Origin: Candidatus Hadarchaeales archaeon
Lineage (GTDB): Archaea > Hadarchaeota > Hadarchaeia > Hadarchaeales > WYZ-LMO6
Assembly (NCBI GenBank): GCA_038851755.1
Contig: JAWCKR010000005.1
Location: 5,819 to 69,818 of the forward strand
Direction of reading: 5' to 3'
Length of the DNA: 64,000 nucleotides
Each line of letters begins with the position of its first letter. Positions within the stretch are counted from its first letter, which is position 1. The notes beneath the pieces were generated by a model that saw nothing but the letters and a program-made list of their open reading frames with translations, searched no databases and was not told where the DNA came from. The position numbers were made by a program, and so were the translations under genes. Positions 642-63,120 of this stretch are shown here, piece by piece.

Positions 642-1592
642 TTGTTTCGGATGCCCGTCCTCCGTTCCCTCATCCAGAGGCTGAAGACGTTCAAACCCCT
701 CCTCAGGAAGTCGTACATCTCGGAGCTGATGGGGATTGTGGGAAGCCGATCCCTGGAGGACGCCGGTTTCGTGGAGGTGGGCGGTAGGACGGTGGTGGTC
801 TCGTGCGATGGCATCCTGGAGGAGGTGGTGAGGGCCTTTCCCAGGCTGGCAGGCTACTACTCCGTGCTGGTCAACGTCCAGGACGTGGTGTGCAAGGGGG
901 CCAGGCCTCTGGGCTTCCTCTACGTGCTCTCCTCCTCCTCGCCCAGGGTGAGGAGGGAGATGACGGAGGGAATAAGGGAGGGTCTGGGGAAGTTCGGCCT
1001 GGAGTTCCTGAAGGCCCACACCCATCCGGACACCTCCTACGACGCCGTGGACGGGATGTGCGTGGGCCTCGCCAGAAAGGTTCTGAGGAGCAACACGGCG
1101 AGGGCGGGGGAGCACCTCCTGCTCGCGGTGGACCTGAAGGGGACCTTCAGAAAAGGGGAGCTCTTCAACGCGCTGGACTCCGTGAGGGAGAGGAGCAGGA
1201 AGGAGGTGCTCAGGCAGGTGGAGGGAATGGTGAAGGTGGCGGAGGGCGGCCTGGCCTCCGCCTCGAAGGACGTGAGCGCCCCGGGCATCGTGGGGACCGC
1301 GGCCATGCTGTGCGAGTACAGCGGGGTGGGGGCGGTGCTGGAACTGGACCGAATTCCCCTTCCAGAGGGAGTGGGGATGGAGGAGTGGCTCCTCACCTAC
1401 CCCAGCACCTGCTACCTCCTCACCTCCTCCCGCCCGGAGAGGTGCCTGAAAACGCTGAGGGCCCACGGGCTGGAGGCCGAGAGGGTGGGGGAGATCACTA
1501 GGGAGAGAAAAGTGGTCCTCAGGCTGGGAGGGAAGGAAGAGACCTTCCTGGACCTGAGGAAGGAATCCGTCTTCGGCTTCAAGCGAACCTGA
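642..1592 (+). CDS. AIR synthase/PurM-like protein (methanogenesis marker 2-like)
   Basis: EDAGF, VVSCDGI, GYYSVLVNVQDV, HTHPD, SKDVSAPGIVGT motifs. Confidence 0.8.
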   Translation: MFRMPVLRSLIQRLKTFKPLLRKSYISELMGIVGSRSLEDAGFVEVGGRTVVVSCDGILEEVVRAFPRLAGYYSVLVNVQDVVCKGARPLGFLYVLSSSSPRVRREMTEGIREGLGKFGLEFLKAHTHPDTSYDAVDGMCVGLARKVLRSNTARAGEHLLLAVDLKGTFRKGELFNALDSVRERSRKEVLRQVEGMVKVAEGGLASASKDVSAPGIVGTAAMLCEYSGVGAVLELDRIPLPEGVGMEEWLLTYPSTCYLLTSSRPERCLKTLRAHGLEAERVGEITRERKVVLRLGGKEETFLDLRKESVFGFKRT

Positions 1593-2316
1593 TCCCGAAG
1601 ACCTTCTCCGCGTTCCCCGTGGTGAGGCTGGCCACCTCCTCCGGGTCCAGGCCCTTGAGCTCCGAGAGGGCCCTGAGGCTCCTCACCACGTCACCCGGTC
1701 TGGCTTCCTTCCCCCCGTACTTCACGGGGGAGTCCGTCTCCAGCAGGATTCGCTCCACCGGGCAAGCCCTCAGGGCGTTGCGGTGGGGGGGACTGTACTC
1801 CAGGGCGGGGGTGGCGGAGAGGTAGTGTCCCAGGTCCAGGATCTCCCCCACCAGCTCCTCCGGCCCCGAGTACCAGTGGAAGACGGAGGGGGGGAGGTCC
1901 CGCCCCCTCAGCTCCTCCAGCACCTCGCGCCAGGCCCAGCGGGTGTGGAGGAGGAGGGGCTTCCCGTACTCCTCAGCCACCTTCACCACCTCCCTCAGCA
2001 CCCCGCGCTGCAGCTCGGGGGGTTTGGGGATTTTCAAATCCATCCCCACCTCCCCCAGCGCCACGACCTCCCCCGCGTGCTCCCTCAGAAACTCCAGCTC
2101 ACCCCTGGGCTCAGGGGAAAGGGACCAGGGGTGCAGACCCACCGCCGGAAGGACGAACCCACCGTGTTCTCTCCCCAGCCTCAGGGTCTCCAGGTTGGAG
2201 TCCCTGTCCATGCCCACGGCGACCACGGCGACCACCCCCGACCCCCTTGCCTCCTCCAGCTCCCTCGCCAGCTCTGGAATTTCGTTCAGATGGGAGTGAG
2301 TGTCCACCAGCTTCAA
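1579..2316 (-). CDS. tatD: TatD family hydrolase
   Basis: DTHSHL, GLHPW, GEVGMD, LLETDSP. Confidence 0.92.
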   Translation of the reverse strand: MKLVDTHSHLNEIPELARELEEARGSGVVAVVAVGMDRDSNLETLRLGREHGGFVLPAVGLHPWSLSPEPRGELEFLREHAGEVVALGEVGMDLKIPKPPELQRGVLREVVKVAEEYGKPLLLHTRWAWREVLEELRGRDLPPSVFHWYSGPEELVGEILDLGHYLSATPALEYSPPHRNALRACPVERILLETDSPVKYGGKEARPGDVVRSLRALSELKGLDPEEVASLTTGNAEKVFGIRFA

Positions 2317-4133: not shown

Positions 4134-4934
4134 ATGGAGAGCAGGACCGAGGACCGCCTGAAGGAGAGGATGTCCAGGATCAGGCACAAGGTGGCGGTGC
4201 TCAGCGGTAAGGGTGGGGTGGGGAAGAGCACCTTCACCGCCAACCTGGCCCTCGCCCTCTCGGTGAGGGGCCACCGGGTGGGCATCCTGGACGCCGACCT
4301 CCACGGCCCCAGCATCCCCAAGCTCCTGGGCATGAGGGGAAGGAGGATGGAGGGAGGAACCCCCGTGGAGGGTCCAGCGGGGTTGAAGGTGGTCTCCCTG
4401 GACTTCCTCCTACCGGACGACAGCACGCCCCTGATCTGGAGGGGACCGATCAAGGCGATGGCCATAAGGCAGCTGCTGGAGGAGGTCGAGTGGGGTGAGC
4501 TGGACCTCCTCCTCATCGACCTCCCCCCGGGCACCGGGGACGAGCCCCTGAGCATAATACAGGAACTCCCCGAGATGGACGGGGTCCTCATCCTCACCTC
4601 CCCCTCCGAACTCTCCGCCTTGGTGGTGGGAAGGGCCGTGGGCTTCGCCAGGAAGATGGGCGTGAGGATCCTGGGGATAGCGGAGAACCTGAGCGGGTTC
4701 ACCTGCCCCAGGTGCGGGGAAACCGTGAGGATCTTCGGGGAGGGAGGGGGAAGGAAGATGGCCGGGGAGCTCGGGGTGCCCTTCCTGGGCGAGGTCCCCC
4801 TGGACCCGCACCTCTCCGAAGACTCGGACCGGGGTGAGCCCTTCGTCCTGAAGAGGCCAGAGGCCCCCGCTGCAAAAGCCTTCCTGGAGCTCGCCGGAAG
4901 GCTGGAGCAGGAGCTGGGGCTGAAAAGGCTTTAG
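4134..4934 (+). CDS. apbC: Mrp/ApbC/NBP35 Fe-S cluster carrier ATPase
   Basis: SGKGGVGKST, DADLHGPSIP, DLPPGTGD, CPRC. Confidence 0.93.
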   Translation: MESRTEDRLKERMSRIRHKVAVLSGKGGVGKSTFTANLALALSVRGHRVGILDADLHGPSIPKLLGMRGRRMEGGTPVEGPAGLKVVSLDFLLPDDSTPLIWRGPIKAMAIRQLLEEVEWGELDLLLIDLPPGTGDEPLSIIQELPEMDGVLILTSPSELSALVVGRAVGFARKMGVRILGIAENLSGFTCPRCGETVRIFGEGGGRKMAGELGVPFLGEVPLDPHLSEDSDRGEPFVLKRPEAPAAKAFLELAGRLEQELGLKRL

Positions 4935-7354
4935 AAGAACCTCCCCAGCCTGGTCTGCTCCCCACCCGGTGAGCGCAGGTCCTCCTCCCTGTATCCCAGC
5001 ACCTCCATGATCCTCATCACGGCGGGGAGGACCTGGTGCTCCACGTAGTAGCTGGCGTCGTACTCCATCCTCTCCGGGTCGAAGTCCTCCACGGGGGTGG
5101 CCCTGTCGCTTATGCTCCCCGGCCCCTTCACCTCCACGTAGGCTATCATGGTCCCGGGCTCCACCGGATAACCTTTCTTCCTGAGCTTCTTGGCCGCCAC
5201 CACGTGCGGCCCTATCGCCCTGTAGCTCTCTATGGGCATCTTGAGCTGGGTGTAGATCACCAGGTCCTCCAGCCCCACCTTCCCCCCCTGCAGCTCCCTC
5301 ACCACCCTCTTGATGATCTCCGCAGCCTTCCTGGGCGATCCCTCCCTAAGGATGGCGTCCAGCACCTCCTGCTGGGTGCGCTTGGCCACGGCCGCCCAGT
5401 CCCTGCGCACGAACTCCAGACCCTTCACGATGAGCCTCCCCTCCTCGTCCACCAGGGCGTACCTCTTCTTGGTGATGAAGACCCCCCTCGGGTAGAAGCC
5501 CTCCAGCTCCAGCTCCATCACCCCGGGCAGCTCCCTGTTCACCTCCTCCAGGAACCTCAGGATCTCCTTCCTGCTCTTCCCCCCCGTCCTGCAGTAGAGG
5601 CCGTCGGTATCGGCGTACACCACCTCCATCCCCTCCCTCTCCGCCCTCGCTATCGTCTGGTGGATGTAGTGTCTGCCCAGGCTGGTGATGCTCTCCGCGC
5701 ACTCCTTGGAGTACCACCTGGCCCTGGCGTACCCGAACATGCCGTAGAAGGAGTTGGAAACGATCTTCAGGGCCATCTGGCGGCTGTCCAGCTCCAGGTA
5801 CTCGGGGGTTCCGGGCCTCAGCTTCTTCAGTTCCTTCTTCAGCTCCGCCCTCCTCTCTATCAGCCGTTCCAGGATGGAGGGGACGAAGCCCTTCCTCTTC
5901 CTGCAGAACCTGTAGCCCAGCTCAGGGACCACCGTGGCCTCCTCCGGGCCGCAGCAGTCGCAGTTCAGGGTGGAGGGGTCTATGTTGTGGGAGACGATGA
6001 TGCTGGGGTACAGCGACCTGAAGTCGAAGGCCACCAGGTCCTCGTGCAGCCCGCGCTTGGGCTCCATCACGTAGGCTCCCGCGTAGGTCTCCTCCATCCT
6101 CTCCCCGTACTCCTCACCCCTGGGCCTCGGGGGGACCAGCTCCCCTCGTCCGAAGGCCTCCCTTATGAGCAGCCACTCCACCAGCTGACCGGGGGTCATC
6201 CTGCTCACGTCGAAGAGGGTCTGACCCACCAGCCTGGTGAGCTCCCGGAAGAGGGGGAGGAAGGCCAGACCCAGCTCCAGGGTGGCCTCGGCGTCCGAGA
6301 GGGAGTACTCCAGCAGGCGCTTCAGTTCCTCCCCTCCCCTCTCCCACGCCCTGGCTATCCCCCCCATCTCGAAGTCGGGTTTTTCCTTTCCCAGCACGTG
6401 CCTGTACACGTCCTCCAGGGTGTAGTGGATGAGCCTGATGGCCCCTATGGTGGCCAGGAAGCTCACCATGGCGTACACGTCCACATGCACCCTCCCCGGC
6501 ACCCGGGTGGCGGTGGCGAACTTCCTTCTCCTGGTCCTGGCCCCTCCCCCCTCCCTCCCCAGCGCCAGGTCCACCCCCAGCCTCCTCGCCCTCTCCCTGA
6601 GATAGGGGAAGTCGAAGAAGTCGGTGTTGTACCCCAGGAGGAGATCCACCTCCCTCTCCCGCACGAGCTCCACGAACCTCTCCAGCATCTCCCTCTCGCT
6701 CCCCACCACCTCCACGAACTCCGGAGCCCCCTCCACCTCCTTCCATGTCAGGACCTTCCTGAAGCCGCCGGGCGCCGCCAGGCTTATCATGATCACCGGA
6801 TCCCTGTCCGACCTGGGGATCCCGGCGGGGTTGTGGACCTCGATGTCGAAGCTCATCACCTCCAGCTCCTGAGGGTGCTCCGGCCCAGGCTCTGGGGGGC
6901 GGGAGGCCAGGACCACGCCCTCCCTCCTCTCCCCCTCCACCCTCACCCCCTCCAGGGGTACCATCCCCCTCTCGATCAGGTACTGCCGGGCGAGGGGGAG
7001 GTCGAAACCGTAGAACTCCTTCACCCCCGGGAGTTCCCGGATGGCGTGCCTGAGGGGGGTGAGGTGCCTGGGACTCTCCAGGAAGACCCGCACCGCCTCC
7101 ACCTCCTTTCCCAGCAGCCCCCTCCTCACCACCTCCACCCTCTTCGGCCTGAGGGTCTCCCCCTTCTCCGTCACCTCCACCTTGGAAACCAGCTTGGCCG
7201 CCCTCTGGGGGTCCTCGGCGGTGAAGTAGAAGGAGGGCTCAAAGCTCGGGTCCTGCACCACCTCCACCTTCCCCCCGCGCTTGAGGTAGAGGGCCAGGGA
7301 AGGGAGTCCCTCCTCAGCCTGATCCACGTCCAGGAGAAGACCTTCGAGGATCAT
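4931..7354 (-). CDS. polB: family B DNA polymerase (PolB3 type)
   Basis: Exo motifs FDIE, YNTDFFD, YSLSDA; pol motifs DFRSLYPS, KIVSNSFYG, YADTDG; C-terminal PIP box QTRLGRFF; start moved to MILEG behind a GGAG site. Confidence 0.96.
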   Translation of the reverse strand: MILEGLLLDVDQAEEGLPSLALYLKRGGKVEVVQDPSFEPSFYFTAEDPQRAAKLVSKVEVTEKGETLRPKRVEVVRRGLLGKEVEAVRVFLESPRHLTPLRHAIRELPGVKEFYGFDLPLARQYLIERGMVPLEGVRVEGERREGVVLASRPPEPGPEHPQELEVMSFDIEVHNPAGIPRSDRDPVIMISLAAPGGFRKVLTWKEVEGAPEFVEVVGSEREMLERFVELVREREVDLLLGYNTDFFDFPYLRERARRLGVDLALGREGGGARTRRRKFATATRVPGRVHVDVYAMVSFLATIGAIRLIHYTLEDVYRHVLGKEKPDFEMGGIARAWERGGEELKRLLEYSLSDAEATLELGLAFLPLFRELTRLVGQTLFDVSRMTPGQLVEWLLIREAFGRGELVPPRPRGEEYGERMEETYAGAYVMEPKRGLHEDLVAFDFRSLYPSIIVSHNIDPSTLNCDCCGPEEATVVPELGYRFCRKRKGFVPSILERLIERRAELKKELKKLRPGTPEYLELDSRQMALKIVSNSFYGMFGYARARWYSKECAESITSLGRHYIHQTIARAEREGMEVVYADTDGLYCRTGGKSRKEILRFLEEVNRELPGVMELELEGFYPRGVFITKKRYALVDEEGRLIVKGLEFVRRDWAAVAKRTQQEVLDAILREGSPRKAAEIIKRVVRELQGGKVGLEDLVIYTQLKMPIESYRAIGPHVVAAKKLRKKGYPVEPGTMIAYVEVKGPGSISDRATPVEDFDPERMEYDASYYVEHQVLPAVMRIMEVLGYREEDLRSPGGEQTRLGRFF

Positions 7355-7386
7355 CACTCCTGAGTGCCCCTGGGACCAAAAAAAAG

Positions 7387-7619
7387 TGGCGGGGATTTCG
7401 ACCCGTCCGCTACTCTTTGGACGGAACCCCGAACCTCGACCACTTTCAGGGCACCGCCCTTTTTTCACGTCCCGGGTCTGTCTCCCGCGATAGGTGCATC
7501 GCACCGACCTCCCCGGTGCCTATCCGCCGCCTTCCCGGGTTTTTACCCCGGTTTTTCGGCGGCTCCCCGTTGCCCTTAGGCTCCGGTTCTGCCCCTCTCG
7601 CGGGCTTCCATCCCCGCCA
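7387..7619 (-). ncRNA. candidate large structured ncRNA, family unassigned
   Basis: 10-bp terminal stem (UGGCGGGGAU/AUCCCCGCCA), several nested helices, TTAAAA box about 25 nt upstream, T-run directly downstream. Confidence 0.75.
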
Positions 7620-7700
7620 ATCATCTATCCTACCTGGCTTCTTTTAAGAGTTGTTCACCCAGAATGTGATATTCCAACCCTCAAGATATCTCCGGGTAGA

Positions 7701-8336
7701 CTATATGGAAGATTTTGAGAGGTGTGGTTTCACCTCGTAGGCGGAGGGGAAGACCCCTGCGGGACCCTCGGGGGGGATCTTCCCGGTGGGGCAGGCCCTG
7801 GAGCAGTAGCCACAGAGCTTGCAGTACTCCGTCTTGTCCGGGAAGAGGGACACCAGGCGATTCACCCCCCTGCCCACGAAGGTCAGCACCCCGTCCTGGG
7901 TGACCGAGGAGCAGGTGCGCACGCAGAGACCGCACAGGATGCACTGCTCTTCCTTCTTCCCCACCCTGTTAGCAAACCTGGAGGGGTCGGCACCGTGCTC
8001 CCGGACCATCCGCCAGAAGTGGCTCCCCTCCTTCAGCGGCAGTCCCCTGAGGGAGGCCAGCTCAAGCAGGGTCTTTCTGAGCAGGTGCAGCTCCGGGTTC
8101 CGTGTCGTGACCTTCAGGCCCTCCTCGGCGGGGTAGGAGCATGAGGCCACGATCCTCTTTCTCCCCTCCCTCTCGATCTCCACGCTGCATACCCTGCAGG
8201 CCCCGTAGGGCTCCAGCCCCTCCCCCTGGCACAGGGCGGGGATTTCTATCCCCCCTCCCCTGGCCGCCTCCAGGAGGGTCATGCCTTCCCTGGCCCTCAC
8301 GACCTTCCCGTCGATTTCCAGCGTGACCTCCTTCAC
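7701..8336 (-). CDS. NuoG/HoxU-like Fe-S subunit ([2Fe-2S] plus 2x[4Fe-4S])
   Basis: [37 protein letters not shown]. Confidence 0.88.
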
Positions 8337-10246
8337 TTCCTCACCTCCCGTCTCTTGGGCCTCGTCCCGGGCGCAGGGGGTGGAGGGACGGGTTCACCGG
8401 AGAGCTTCCTCACCGCCTCGAAGGTACAGACCTCGAAGCAGGTGCCGCACTTCGTGCACTTCCCCTGGTCTATCACGTGCACCTCCTCCTTTCCTCCCCT
8501 GATGGCCCCCACCGGGCACCGGGTGAGACAGAGGCCGCAGGCCTGGCAGAGGTCGGGATCGATGTAGTAGGCAAGCAGGCCCCTGCACACCTTCGCCGGG
8601 CACCTCCCCCTAAGATGGGCCTCGTACTCCTCCCCGAAGTATTTCATGGTGGTGAGGACGGGGTTCACGGCCGTGGTACCCAGGGCGCAGAGGGAGGCCT
8701 CGGCCATGGTCTCGCCTATCTCCTCTATGGTCTTCAGGTCCTCCTCCTTCCCCCTCCCCTCGCACAGGTCCGTGAGGAGGCGGTTGAGCACCCTCAGCCC
8801 CTCCCTGCAGGGGATGCACTTCCCGCAGGACTCCTCCAGGAGGAAGTGGATGAAGAAGCGGGCCACGTCCACCATGCAGGTGTCCTCGTCCATCACGATC
8901 ATGCCCCCCGAGCCCATCATGGAGCCCAGCTTGGTGAGGGCGTCGAAGTCCACGGGGGTGTCCAGGTACTGCTCGGGGATCACCCCTCCCGAGGGTCCGC
9001 CCGTCTGGACGGCCTTGAACCTCTTCCCTCCCCTTATCCCTCCCCCCACGTCGTAGATGATCTGCCTGAGGGTCATGCCCATGGGGACCTCCACCAGCCC
9101 CGTGTTGTTGACCTTCCCCACCAGGCTGAAGATCTTGGTACCCGGGGACCCCTCGGTCCCTATCCTCCTGAACCAGTCCGCCCCGTTCAGGACGATCAGG
9201 GGGACGTTGGCCCAGGTCTCCACGTTGTTCAGGCAGGAGGGCCTGTCGTGGATCCCCTTCACGGCGGTGTGGATGTACTTGGGCCTGGGCTCCCCGACCT
9301 TCCCCTCTATGGCCGTCATGAGGGCGCTGGACTCCCCCGAGACGAAGGCCCCCGCCCCGCGGTGGACCTCCACGTCGAAGTCGAAGCCTGAGCCCAGGAT
9401 GTTCTCCCCCAGCAGGCCTCGCTCCCTGGCCTGCTCTATGGCCGTGGTCACGTTCTCCACGGCCAGGGGGTACTCCTCCCTCACGTAGATGTAGCCCTGG
9501 TGGGAGCCTATGGCATAGGCCCCTATGATCAGGCCCTCCAGGACGGAGTGGGGGTTGCCCTCCATGAGGGAGCGGTCCATGAAGGCTCCGGGATCGCCCT
9601 CGTCGCAGTTCACGATCACGTACTTGGGCTCACCCGGGGCGTTCCTGGTGGTCTCCCACTTCCTCCCCGTGGGGAAGCCCCCTCCACCCCTCCCCCTCAG
9701 GCCGGAGCGCTTCACCTCCTCCAGGACCTTCTCGGGGCTGAGCTCGAAGAGGGCCCTGGCCAGGGCCCTGTATCCCCCCTCCGCCACGTAGTCCTCTATC
9801 CTGGTGGGGTCGATCCTGCCGTTGAGGGAGAGGAGGAGCCTGTGCTGGTGGCGGTAGAAGGGGAGGTCGGAGGCCTTCCTGATCCTCTGCCCGGTGACGG
9901 GGTCCTGGTAGAGGAGGCGGTCCACCACCCCTTTGGAAACCACGGCGTCCACGATTTCCTTAACGTCGGAAGGCTTGACCGAGACATAAAAGGTCTCCTC
10001 GGGGTAGACCGTCACCACGGGCTCCCTCTGGCAGAACCCGTTGCAGCCCGTCTCTTTCACCTCTATTTCCCCCACCAGTCCTCTGCTCTCTATTTCCTCT
10101 TCCAGAGCCAGGAAGACCTTGTCACTTCCGGCCGCCAGACCGCAGGCAGATTTGGTGCAGATGGTGAGGAGGGGGCGGTGGGGGTCCCTGCCCCTAAGAA
10201 GCTCCTCCCTCCATCTGTCCAGGTCCGCGGGAGAGTTCAGCCTCAT
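8333..10246 (-). CDS. NuoF/HydB-like NADH-binding flavoprotein
   Basis: [40 protein letters not shown]-terminal 2x[4Fe-4S]. Confidence 0.93.
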
Positions 10247-10914
10247 CCTCTCACCCTAGTCCCCACCTCCGCAGGCACGGCCGGGGGTGCGGCCTTCACT
10301 CCGAACTTCTCCAGCAACCTCGCCACGGAGGCGGGCGTGAGGTTCCCGTAGTAGTCATCGTTGATCATGATCACCGGTCCTATCGCGCAGCACCCCAGGC
10401 AGTTGACGGTTTCAAGCGTGAACTGGAGGTCGGGAGTGGTCTCCCCGGGCGAGATGCCCAGAAGGTTCGTTATCCTCTCCAAAATCATCTGCGAACCCCT
10501 CACCTGGCAGGAAGTACCCATGCATACCCTGATCAGGTTCCTCCCCCTGGGGCTCAGGGTGAAAGCCTTGTAGAAGGTCACGATGCGGTAGACGTTACTC
10601 AAAGGCACATTGAGCTGTCTGCTCACCTCCAGGAGGACCTCCATCGGAAGCCAGCCCAACCCCTTCTGCAGTCTCAGCAGGATCTGGATCAGCTTGGTCC
10701 TGTCGTAGCCGAACTCCTCCAAAACCTTGTTCACTAGGTTGCCCATCCCGCCGAGCCTCATCTGTTGCTCAGGCTGTGGCTCCGGCGCCTTTTCCTTCTC
10801 CGTACCCTCCGGCAACTTGACCTTGAACCTGCAGCGAGGACAGGTGGTGTAGAAAGCCCCCTTCCCGCGGTAATCCCAGACGTACCCGCAGTGCTGACAC
10901 TTTACCTTACTCAC
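10243..10914 (-). CDS. NuoE/HydC-like [2Fe-2S] subunit with N-terminal zinc ribbon
   Basis: [23 protein letters not shown]; N-terminal CQHC..CPRC. Confidence 0.9.
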
Positions 10915-51778: not shown

Positions 51779-52091
51779 GGCGGCGGGCGCGCCGAAGGTG
51801 GACGCCTTCGCCGCGCACCGTTGACCGGCCCCTCAGGCTCCATCCCGCTTTCCGCAAGCGCCGAACGTCCTGCCCACCCTTGCTGACTTCCGCCCCTGGG
51901 GGGTTCAGCAGGCAAGGGAGGTTCTCCCCGGCCCTCCGGTCGGGGCCCCTCCGCCGCCGACCCTGCGGGGCGGGACTTCCGCGCCCGGAACCGGGCGGTG
52001 CGAGGTTCCAGCGCCGCCCCCCGGCTTCGGCCCGGCGTGTAGCGGATTTCCGGTCACAGGGGACCGCTAGCCCCCCGCCTAGCCCGCCGCC
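51779..52091 (-). ncRNA. ffs: archaeal signal recognition particle (7S) RNA
   Basis: 5' GGGCUAGGCGGGGGG..CCCCUGUGACCGGAAAUCCGC Alu domain, helix 8 CCAGGGGCGGAAGUCAGCA, 10-bp terminal stem, about 313 nt. Confidence 0.93.
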
Positions 52092-63028: not shown

Positions 63029-63120
63029 AGCCCCGGGCGGGAATTGAACCCGCGACCTCGCGCTCTTCGGTTCCTCGGGGAATACCAAGCGCGCGCTCTT
63101 ACCGACTGAGCTACCGGGGC
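63029..63120 (-). tRNA. tRNA-Thr(GGT) with 18-nt intron (63065-63082)
   Basis: GCCCCGG acceptor, GCTC/GAGC D stem, CGCGC/GCGCG anticodon stem, GGT anticodon, intron at 37/38 with BHB-like motif, TTCAATT T loop. Confidence 0.95.

Follow-up and report, generated by a model that had tools for sequence, protein, structure and literature searches.

The window analysed here, a 64,000-nt stretch of contig JAWCKR010000005.1 from a Candidatus Hadarchaeales archaeon (assembly GCA_038851755.1), carries on its minus strand, directly upstream of the gene for a family-B DNA polymerase (polB), an element which a preliminary description of the sequence had drawn as a large structured RNA. Its 5' end, UGGCGGGGAU, starts at 7619 and its 3' end, AUCCCCGCCA, is at 7387. 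The promoter proposed for it, TTAAAA on the minus strand, is in place, and so are the T-run and, 32 nt after the RNA, the polB frame when read from the ATG at 7354; a conserved GTG lies at 7357. The coordinates of the gene, its signals, its structural parts and polB are collected in Table 1, together with those of two tandem pairs of paralogs.

Table 1. Features of the RNA locus in the window and tandem paralogs in relatives (loci L118 and L119).
Feature	Position	Strand	Remarks
RNA gene	7387..7619	-	233 nt as drawn in the preliminary description; homology in relatives begins and stops at the same bounds; 225 bits with covariance model R1
TATA box TTAAAA	7642..7647	-	predicts transcription start at about 7617-7619
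T8 run, RNA terminator	7378..7385	-	one C between RNA 3' end and T8; by position a candidate polB TATA box
Near-palindrome TTGGAATATCAC	7666..7677	-	about 47-58 nt upstream of the RNA; candidate operator that a dimeric regulator could bind
P1, 5' strand	7610..7619	-	RNA 1-10, pairs with 7387-7396; 99.6% of cells paired; 3 of 7 modelled pairs compensatory
P1, 3' strand	7387..7396	-	RNA 224-233; GC-rich 10-bp helix joining both ends
Domain 1	7484..7604	-	helix A (RNA 16-22/130-136) extended to a four-way junction bearing H1, H2 and H3
Domain 2	7400..7478	-	helix B (RNA 142-147/215-220), 3-bp helix, GAA/AGUA module, hairpin H4
polB, family-B DNA polymerase	4931..7357	-	Pfam DNA_pol_B 1.4e-70, exonuclease domain 9.7e-26; directly downstream of the RNA
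Tandem short (about 205 nt) and long (about 233 nt) paralogs	L118:1501-1705 and 1791-2023; L119:1819-2023 and 1501-1733		each with TATA box and T-run

The limits of the element are visible from its relatives. With positions 7370-7650 as query, BLASTN against 41 related genomes returned full-length matches running from query position 31-33 to about 273, which are the ends of the RNA plus the T-run. Copies fall into a long form of about 232 nt (200-250 bits with the covariance model, CM R1) and a short form of about 200-225 nt (37-143 bits), in most of which the upper part of hairpin H4 has given way to a short stem-loop while the core is otherwise kept. Between -40 and -17 a TATA-like hexamer, with a median start at -28/-29, occurs in 39 of 40 long copies and in 17 of 21 short ones; the 3' end is followed within 14 nt by at least four T in 39 of the 40 long and 13 of the 21 short copies. 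As the homology stops at the ends of the RNA and the neighbourhoods differ among copies, the RNA is an independent, stand-alone gene with its own TATA promoter and oligo-T terminator. A near-palindrome of the type GARATATCTC precedes the TATA box, about 45-58 nt before the RNA, in 30 of 39 long copies, as counted with a regular expression written post hoc; it is absent in the polB-linked copies of genome families f2 and f5 and sits, at the loci linked to a DRG-type GTPase gene, between two divergent promoters. Judged by its sequence, it is a candidate regulator site. A regulon for it was looked for with an overly strict and then with a looser pattern, and matches lay almost only at the RNA's own promoters; for palindrome plus TATA box, the six matches listed fall at four places in five relatives' genomes, two of these places being promoters of this RNA.

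Folded alone, the 233 nt reach a minimum free energy of -125.2 kcal/mol, against -90.35 +/- 4.4 for 200 dinucleotide shuffles (z -7.9), none of which folds as well; the opposite strand folds less strongly (z -5.8). Comparison of homologues bears the fold out. In a 37-copy alignment the helices vary while junctions and loops are invariant or nearly so, and RNAalifold predicted 59 pairs on 39 copies, 41 of them with compensatory changes. The 61-pair model that was used for the covariance model is paired in 97.1% of 2244 cells, and 39 of its 61 pairs change on both sides; none of 500 column shuffles reached it in any of five measures, and when the 3' partners were slid by one to three columns as a control, 34.6-46.9% of cells remained paired and 12-19 pairs showed changes on both sides. 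Among 55 distinct long copies the pairs of highest mutual information all lie within the model; the single extra pairs indicated are 10/224, which extends P1, a G-A/A-G pair in H2 and one possible long-range pair, and no pseudoknot or tertiary helix emerged. G-U cells number 148 and A-C cells 28, so that the minus strand is the sense strand, the strand on which promoter and terminator also read.

In the resulting architecture the two ends of the molecule are held by P1, from which the chain leads through the junction GGAAG into helix A and the four-way junction of Domain 1, through the junction AAAAAG into helix B and H4 of Domain 2, and over a GAA back to P1. Domain 1 bears three hairpins: H1 (RNA positions 34-53) with a YAMG tetraloop, H2 (58-96) with A-rich internal and apical loops, and H3 (101-119) with a GGNRGNR loop. 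Its helices (2-6) are paired in 96.6-100% of cells, with 22 of 34 pairs compensatory, and the same core is kept in the short paralogs. Domain 2 (helices 7-10, 91-96% paired, 14 of 20 pairs compensatory) ends in H4 (161-201), whose loop GUGGUCGAG is invariant, and contains a GAA at 7464-7466 opposite an AGUA at 7411-7414, a module which we take to be loop-E- or S-turn-like by its motif. Exact 10-mers complementary to the H4 loop occur four times in the source genome, all inside coding-looking sequence and none in a transfer RNA (tRNA).

Covariation supports the 10-bp pairing of the ends and the GCCGCC/GGCGGC arm capped by CCGGG/CCCGG, which corresponds to H2, as the preliminary description had drawn them. 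Four other helices of that drawing are absent from the comparative model, built on 37-55 homologues: the long-range helix GAACC-G-GAGCCU/AGGUUC-GG-GGUUC, the closing helix GGCACC/GGUGCC, the hairpin GGUGC/GCACC, whose GCGAU/AUCGC switch is not conserved, and the hairpin CCGUCC/GGACGG. Their bases pair instead as H1, H3, helix A and H4 (the last three at 101-119, 16-22/130-136 and 161-201), so that only about half of the internal helices first proposed survive the comparison of homologues.

CM R1 matched 51 of 66 Hadarchaeota genomes, with one to six matches each, and none of 85 archaeal genomes outside this phylum. An exact degenerate pattern of H1 was found in 27 stretches of a collection of 185,579 species and in no viral contig; 26 of the stretches are titled Hadarchaeota, Hadesarchaea, Hadarchaeales, Hadarchaeum or Hodarchaeaceae and the 27th 'uncultured archaeon'. 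As far as searched, the family is therefore restricted to the phylum Hadarchaeota, a group of heat-loving archaea. The long-copy alignment holds 96 genomic matches (55 distinct), and 24 further matches are mostly short forms. Nine genomes of genus g9 carry a tandem of a short and a long copy, separated by about 85 nt and each preceded by a promoter, and the genomes of families f1 and f5 hold the polB-linked copy as their only one. In a tree of the copies, which for so short an RNA and with midpoint rooting is of descriptive use only, the polB-linked and DRG-linked copies of f2 fall into different clades. Genomes in which CM R1 found no match belong to genus g5 (none of seven matched), g8, g19, g20 and, for three of its four genomes, g7, and include G010, which is 95% complete. 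In G010 an element of about 155 nt lies before polB (L158:1320-1470, plus strand); its end helix, GGCGGGGAGG/CCUCCCCGCC, is P1-like, its interior is unrelated and contains a T-run, and its fold has a z of -4.6. It may be a decayed or replaced copy.

Searches against known RNAs support the proposal that this is a previously undescribed large archaeal ncRNA. Rfam 15 recovered only two genes in the window: the RNA of the signal recognition particle (SRP), which had been placed elsewhere in the window and lies at 51781-52089 on the minus strand (archaeal type, full length, 149.5 bits), and an intron-bearing tRNA. The latter is a 92-nt gene at 63029-63120, also on the minus strand, with a 20-nt insertion in the anticodon-loop region, presumably the intron, and is called tRNA-Pro(tgg) by ARAGORN. 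At the RNA itself no family matched at the gathering threshold; with the limit relaxed to E<=10, positions 7300-7720 gave three chance-level matches, of which sR7 (12.4 bits) falls outside the RNA, and the locus together with 14 divergent homologue loci gave nothing above chance level (STnc400, mir-425, sR7, Hairpin, Arthropod_7SK). The short forms match no Rfam family either. Full-text literature searches found no description of the RNA, although supplementary files, which lie outside such searches, could hold unnamed candidate motifs.

The gene is also represented at the RNA level. Two RNA-Seq metatranscriptome libraries, X11 and X14, contain many short contigs on 7385-7619, with 36 and 267 aligned respectively, most of them at 95% identity or more. 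Stretches without coverage carry no weight, nor can the depth of contigs be used to rank the RNA against polB: X11 has no contig on 7000-7371 and 7620-7900, where X14 reaches a depth of at most 3.7, and the libraries X4 and X5 have none on 7620-7900. Two long, low-depth contigs of X4/X5 (4607 and 3105 nt) carry, in other genomic surroundings, a relative of the RNA that has 144 other letters in place of about 145 nt of the interior; they align to the window at 7388-7415 and 7561-7619.

Some of the contigs join the 3' end of the RNA to its 5' end. A 152-nt contig of X11 runs from RNA position 130 to the C after the last A (7386) and then straight into position 3 (7617), continuing to position 49. 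This joint, 7617 to 7386, has a word depth of 1677 in X11, with 47 nt on the shorter side, and of 113 in X14. A second joint, 7618 to 7385, reaches a depth of 1693 in X14 (39 nt on the shorter side, one ambiguous letter), and X14 also holds a third variant, in which one C is added. A head-to-tail arrangement is seen in none of the genomic matches (96, of which 55 are distinct), and the joints therefore mark where RNA molecules begin and end. The 5' end lies at 7617-7619, where the TATA box predicts initiation, and the 3' end at 7385-7387, at the first bases of the terminator. Either the joints are those of covalent circles of about 232 nt or they arose by template switching between abundant linear molecules; they suggest a circular isoform. 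One report documents circular RNAs in archaea that include 5S and C/D RNAs in full length as well as parts of RNase P and 7S RNA (PMC3326292). In Thermococcus kodakarensis, circularisation by the ligase Rnl needs the terminal stem (PMC9014305). The circular C/D box small RNAs of Thermococcales resemble the Hadarchaeota RNA in being small and stable, in having a terminal stem that joins the ends and in giving reads joined 3' to 5'; the Hadarchaeota RNA is about four times longer, has no C/D match in Rfam and comes from a genome in which the Rnl family was not found.

That the RNA founds a genuine new ncRNA family we consider very likely, new being meant as a family of sequence and structure and leaving aside any new kind of mechanism. 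With somewhat less assurance, though still with good confidence, we regard a stand-alone gene for a stable structured ncRNA of about 232 nt that founds a Hadarchaeota family as the best explanation of the data as a whole.

As to its function, the RNA would act in trans and form the core of a ribonucleoprotein peculiar to this lineage. The rigid, covarying helices would present invariant purine-rich single strands (three GGAAG-like segments, the A-rich junctions and the S-turn-like module) as docking surfaces, and a fraction of the molecules might be closed into circles and so be protected at high temperature. By analogy we tentatively propose a protein-binding scaffold or decoy in the manner of the 6S, Y or CsrB-type RNAs. 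Like 6S RNA, the Y RNAs and CsrB/RsmZ, the Hadarchaeota RNA appears to act in trans, exists in several copies whose differences are peripheral, has its ends paired in a stem and repeats short purine-rich motifs in loops and junctions; it differs from them in having no Rfam homology to them, and we know of no member of these families, and of none of their partner proteins, in Hadarchaeota. A bolder version, which we think unlikely, would make it the RNA subunit of a Hadarchaeota-specific ribonucleoprotein or ribozyme, a fourth major stable RNA beside RNase P RNA, SRP RNA and 5S RNA, partly circular and tied to genome replication or translation; in this version the gene directly upstream of polB is the ancestral one, and a second paralog stands head to head with the gene of the ribosome-associated DRG GTPase.

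A catalytic RNA or an assembly made of RNA only, for instance a ribozyme that processes itself or an ornate RNA multimer, would need no protein to scaffold. Its size and multi-junction architecture, the near-invariant junctions and loops beside covarying helices, the form joined end to end and the absence of a constant neighbouring protein gene would all suit such an RNA. However, no Rfam ribozyme family is matched, covariation gives no pseudoknot, and the predicted transcription start coincides with the 5' end found in the joints, so that cleavage at the 5' end is not needed; we hold this reading to be improbable. Among known RNAs, the Hadarchaeota RNA also resembles the raiA motif, OLE, ROOL and GOLLD, lineage-restricted RNAs with ornate multi-junction folds that came out of comparative genomics with their function unknown at discovery. 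Those RNAs come from bacteria or phages and in most cases are much larger; the Hadarchaeota RNA is archaeal, and it has no Rfam match to any of them.

The preliminary description had left room for a cis-regulatory leader, in which polB would be transcribed together with the structured RNA at its 5' side and attenuator-like leakage past the terminator would set the expression of polB. The synteny with polB is conserved: polB lies downstream on the same strand at 13 loci of families f1, f2 and f5, starting 29-50 nt after the RNA, and where f1 and f5 genomes are concerned there is no copy in any other place. Furthermore a 437-nt contig of X5 covers 7158-7593 and so crosses the terminator; this library, however, bears the label 'RNA? 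(probably DNA)', and the bridging contig, which may be DNA, was not counted as proof of read-through. The other paralogs lie elsewhere. In a further set of loci, 12 for each neighbour, a divergent gene for a DRG-type GTPase stands upstream and a convergent gene for an FAD-dependent oxidoreductase downstream, a third set adjoins an aminotransferase gene, and no constant partner gene (transposase, Cas or other) was seen in the neighbourhoods of the RNA. There is thus no consistent place in a 5' untranslated region such as a riboswitch or leader would occupy, and because paralogs (at least 12) face convergent genes the RNA is better read as a stable trans-acting RNA than as a polB leader. In addition, nearly all long copies end in the T-run, the head-to-tail joints put the 3' end before polB, and in the RNA-negative genomes of g5 and g8 polB has an ordinary, short A/T-rich upstream region. 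As for a switch, the T-run follows P1 itself, and no competing helix has covariation support. We give the leader a small probability, lower still than that of a ribozyme.

It had also been suggested that polB has no obvious promoter of its own and may depend on read-through. This was not established, for the T8 run sits at TATA-box distance from the GTG at 7357. The f1 homologues conserve AGTGAT at the start of polB, and this GTG is therefore its likely start codon. Lying 21-28 nt before that codon, the T-run may serve as the TATA box of a leaderless polB mRNA; at the polB-linked copies the terminator of the RNA would then double as the polB TATA box, and some read-through coupling of RNA and polB is possible. 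Upstream of the RNA the window holds three co-directional genes (7701-10914, minus strand) that make up a flavin module of the HydBC/NuoEF type, encoding a 2Fe-2S/4Fe-4S protein of 211 amino acids, a NuoF-like FMN/Fe-S protein of 637 and a NuoE-like thioredoxin-type 2Fe-2S protein of 223.

A divergent form of a known housekeeping RNA, namely a minimal RNase P RNA, an expanded 5S ribosomal RNA (rRNA) or an RNA resembling a tRNA or transfer-messenger RNA (tmRNA), could have been expected from the terminal helix that pairs the ends, from the three-way core, from the AGUA/GAA module, which we assume to be that of 5S loop E, and from the source genome itself, where RNase P RNA reaches at best 17.7 bits with RF00373 and 11.7 bits with RF02357, in each case away from the locus. 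The RNA does share with RNase P, 5S and SRP RNA a stand-alone gene with TATA promoter and oligo-T terminator, a helix that closes the two ends, helices that covary around invariant junctions and presence in RNA libraries, and circular isoforms of such RNAs are reported in PMC3326292. It is unlike them in sequence and structure, where there is no match, in that canonical genes exist elsewhere (for RNase P RNA in relatives), and in being confined to one phylum, missing in 15 of 66 genomes and present in one to six paralogs. RNase P RNA gave no match at the locus, and RF02357 gave nothing; RF00373 is above its cut-off at other loci, alongside this RNA, in 38 of 41 genomes of the order, including all four relatives of the same genus, so that its absence from the source assembly, 93% complete, is most likely an assembly gap. 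The RNase P RNA of a relative shows motifs that we take for ordinary CR-I and CR-V and that are unlike this RNA. An expanded 5S rRNA, an idea that came from the three-way topology and the AGUA/GAA, finds no 5S match at the locus, and the canonical 121-nt 5S gene of the source genome lies at C4:52894-53014 (98.1 bits), 34 of the 41 genomes having a 5S above the cut-off (RF00001). For a tRNA- or tmRNA-like 3' end, ARAGORN found no gene in 7000-8000, and covariation assigns the bases in question to helix B and P1. Membership in these housekeeping families is refuted, and we leave it hardly any probability.

The weakest alternative, that the fold arose by chance or that this GC- and purine-rich sequence encodes a small protein, draws on several frames that stay open across the whole element in many homologues, one antisense frame doing so in 25 of 54, and it is refuted, with next to no probability left to it, by some ten scattered 1-nt indels among homologues, by the compensatory changes in 39 of 61 pairs, by conservation that ends where the helices end and by the promoter and terminator that frame the RNA, in agreement with the earlier view that no credible open reading frame covers it. 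What probability remains after the scaffold or decoy, the ribozyme and the leader belongs, on balance, to something else.

A number of points have to be set against a stable, partly circular, trans-acting RNA. All four runs consist of contigs, so that the coverage of the gene gives neither expression level nor strand nor exact starts and ends, and X11 and X14 come from one study. Template switching by reverse transcriptase between abundant molecules could explain the joints. As to a route of circularisation, the ATP-dependent RNA ligase family TIGR01209 (Rnl) has no match in the source genome at its 93% completeness, and the RNA itself matches no C/D family above noise; no bulge-helix-bulge motif was seen at the junction by inspection, no formal search for one having been made; pairing is impossible between the CGGG that follows the 5' site and the UUUU that follows the 3' site; and RtcB is present in the genome. 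Because 15 of the 66 Hadarchaeota genomes have no match, either the phylum can do without the RNA or the RNA has become too divergent there for the model to find it. The adjacency of RNA and polB, conserved over three families, may be a cis link that we underrate, and the scaffold or decoy mechanism is argued from anatomy and analogy only.

To our knowledge, few large and elaborately folded RNAs are known in archaea beyond rRNA, tRNA, RNase P RNA, SRP RNA and guide RNAs. Hadarchaeota are a cosmopolitan, uncultured phylum with very small genomes, and in them an RNA of 232 nt with ten covarying helices, near-invariant junctions, its own promoter, several paralogs per genome and evidence at the RNA level offers a target for biochemistry and cryo-electron microscopy. 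Should it have a protein partner or a catalytic activity, it would stand for a cellular function that is invisible to protein-based annotation, and it would possibly add a large circular ncRNA to the RNA biology of archaea.

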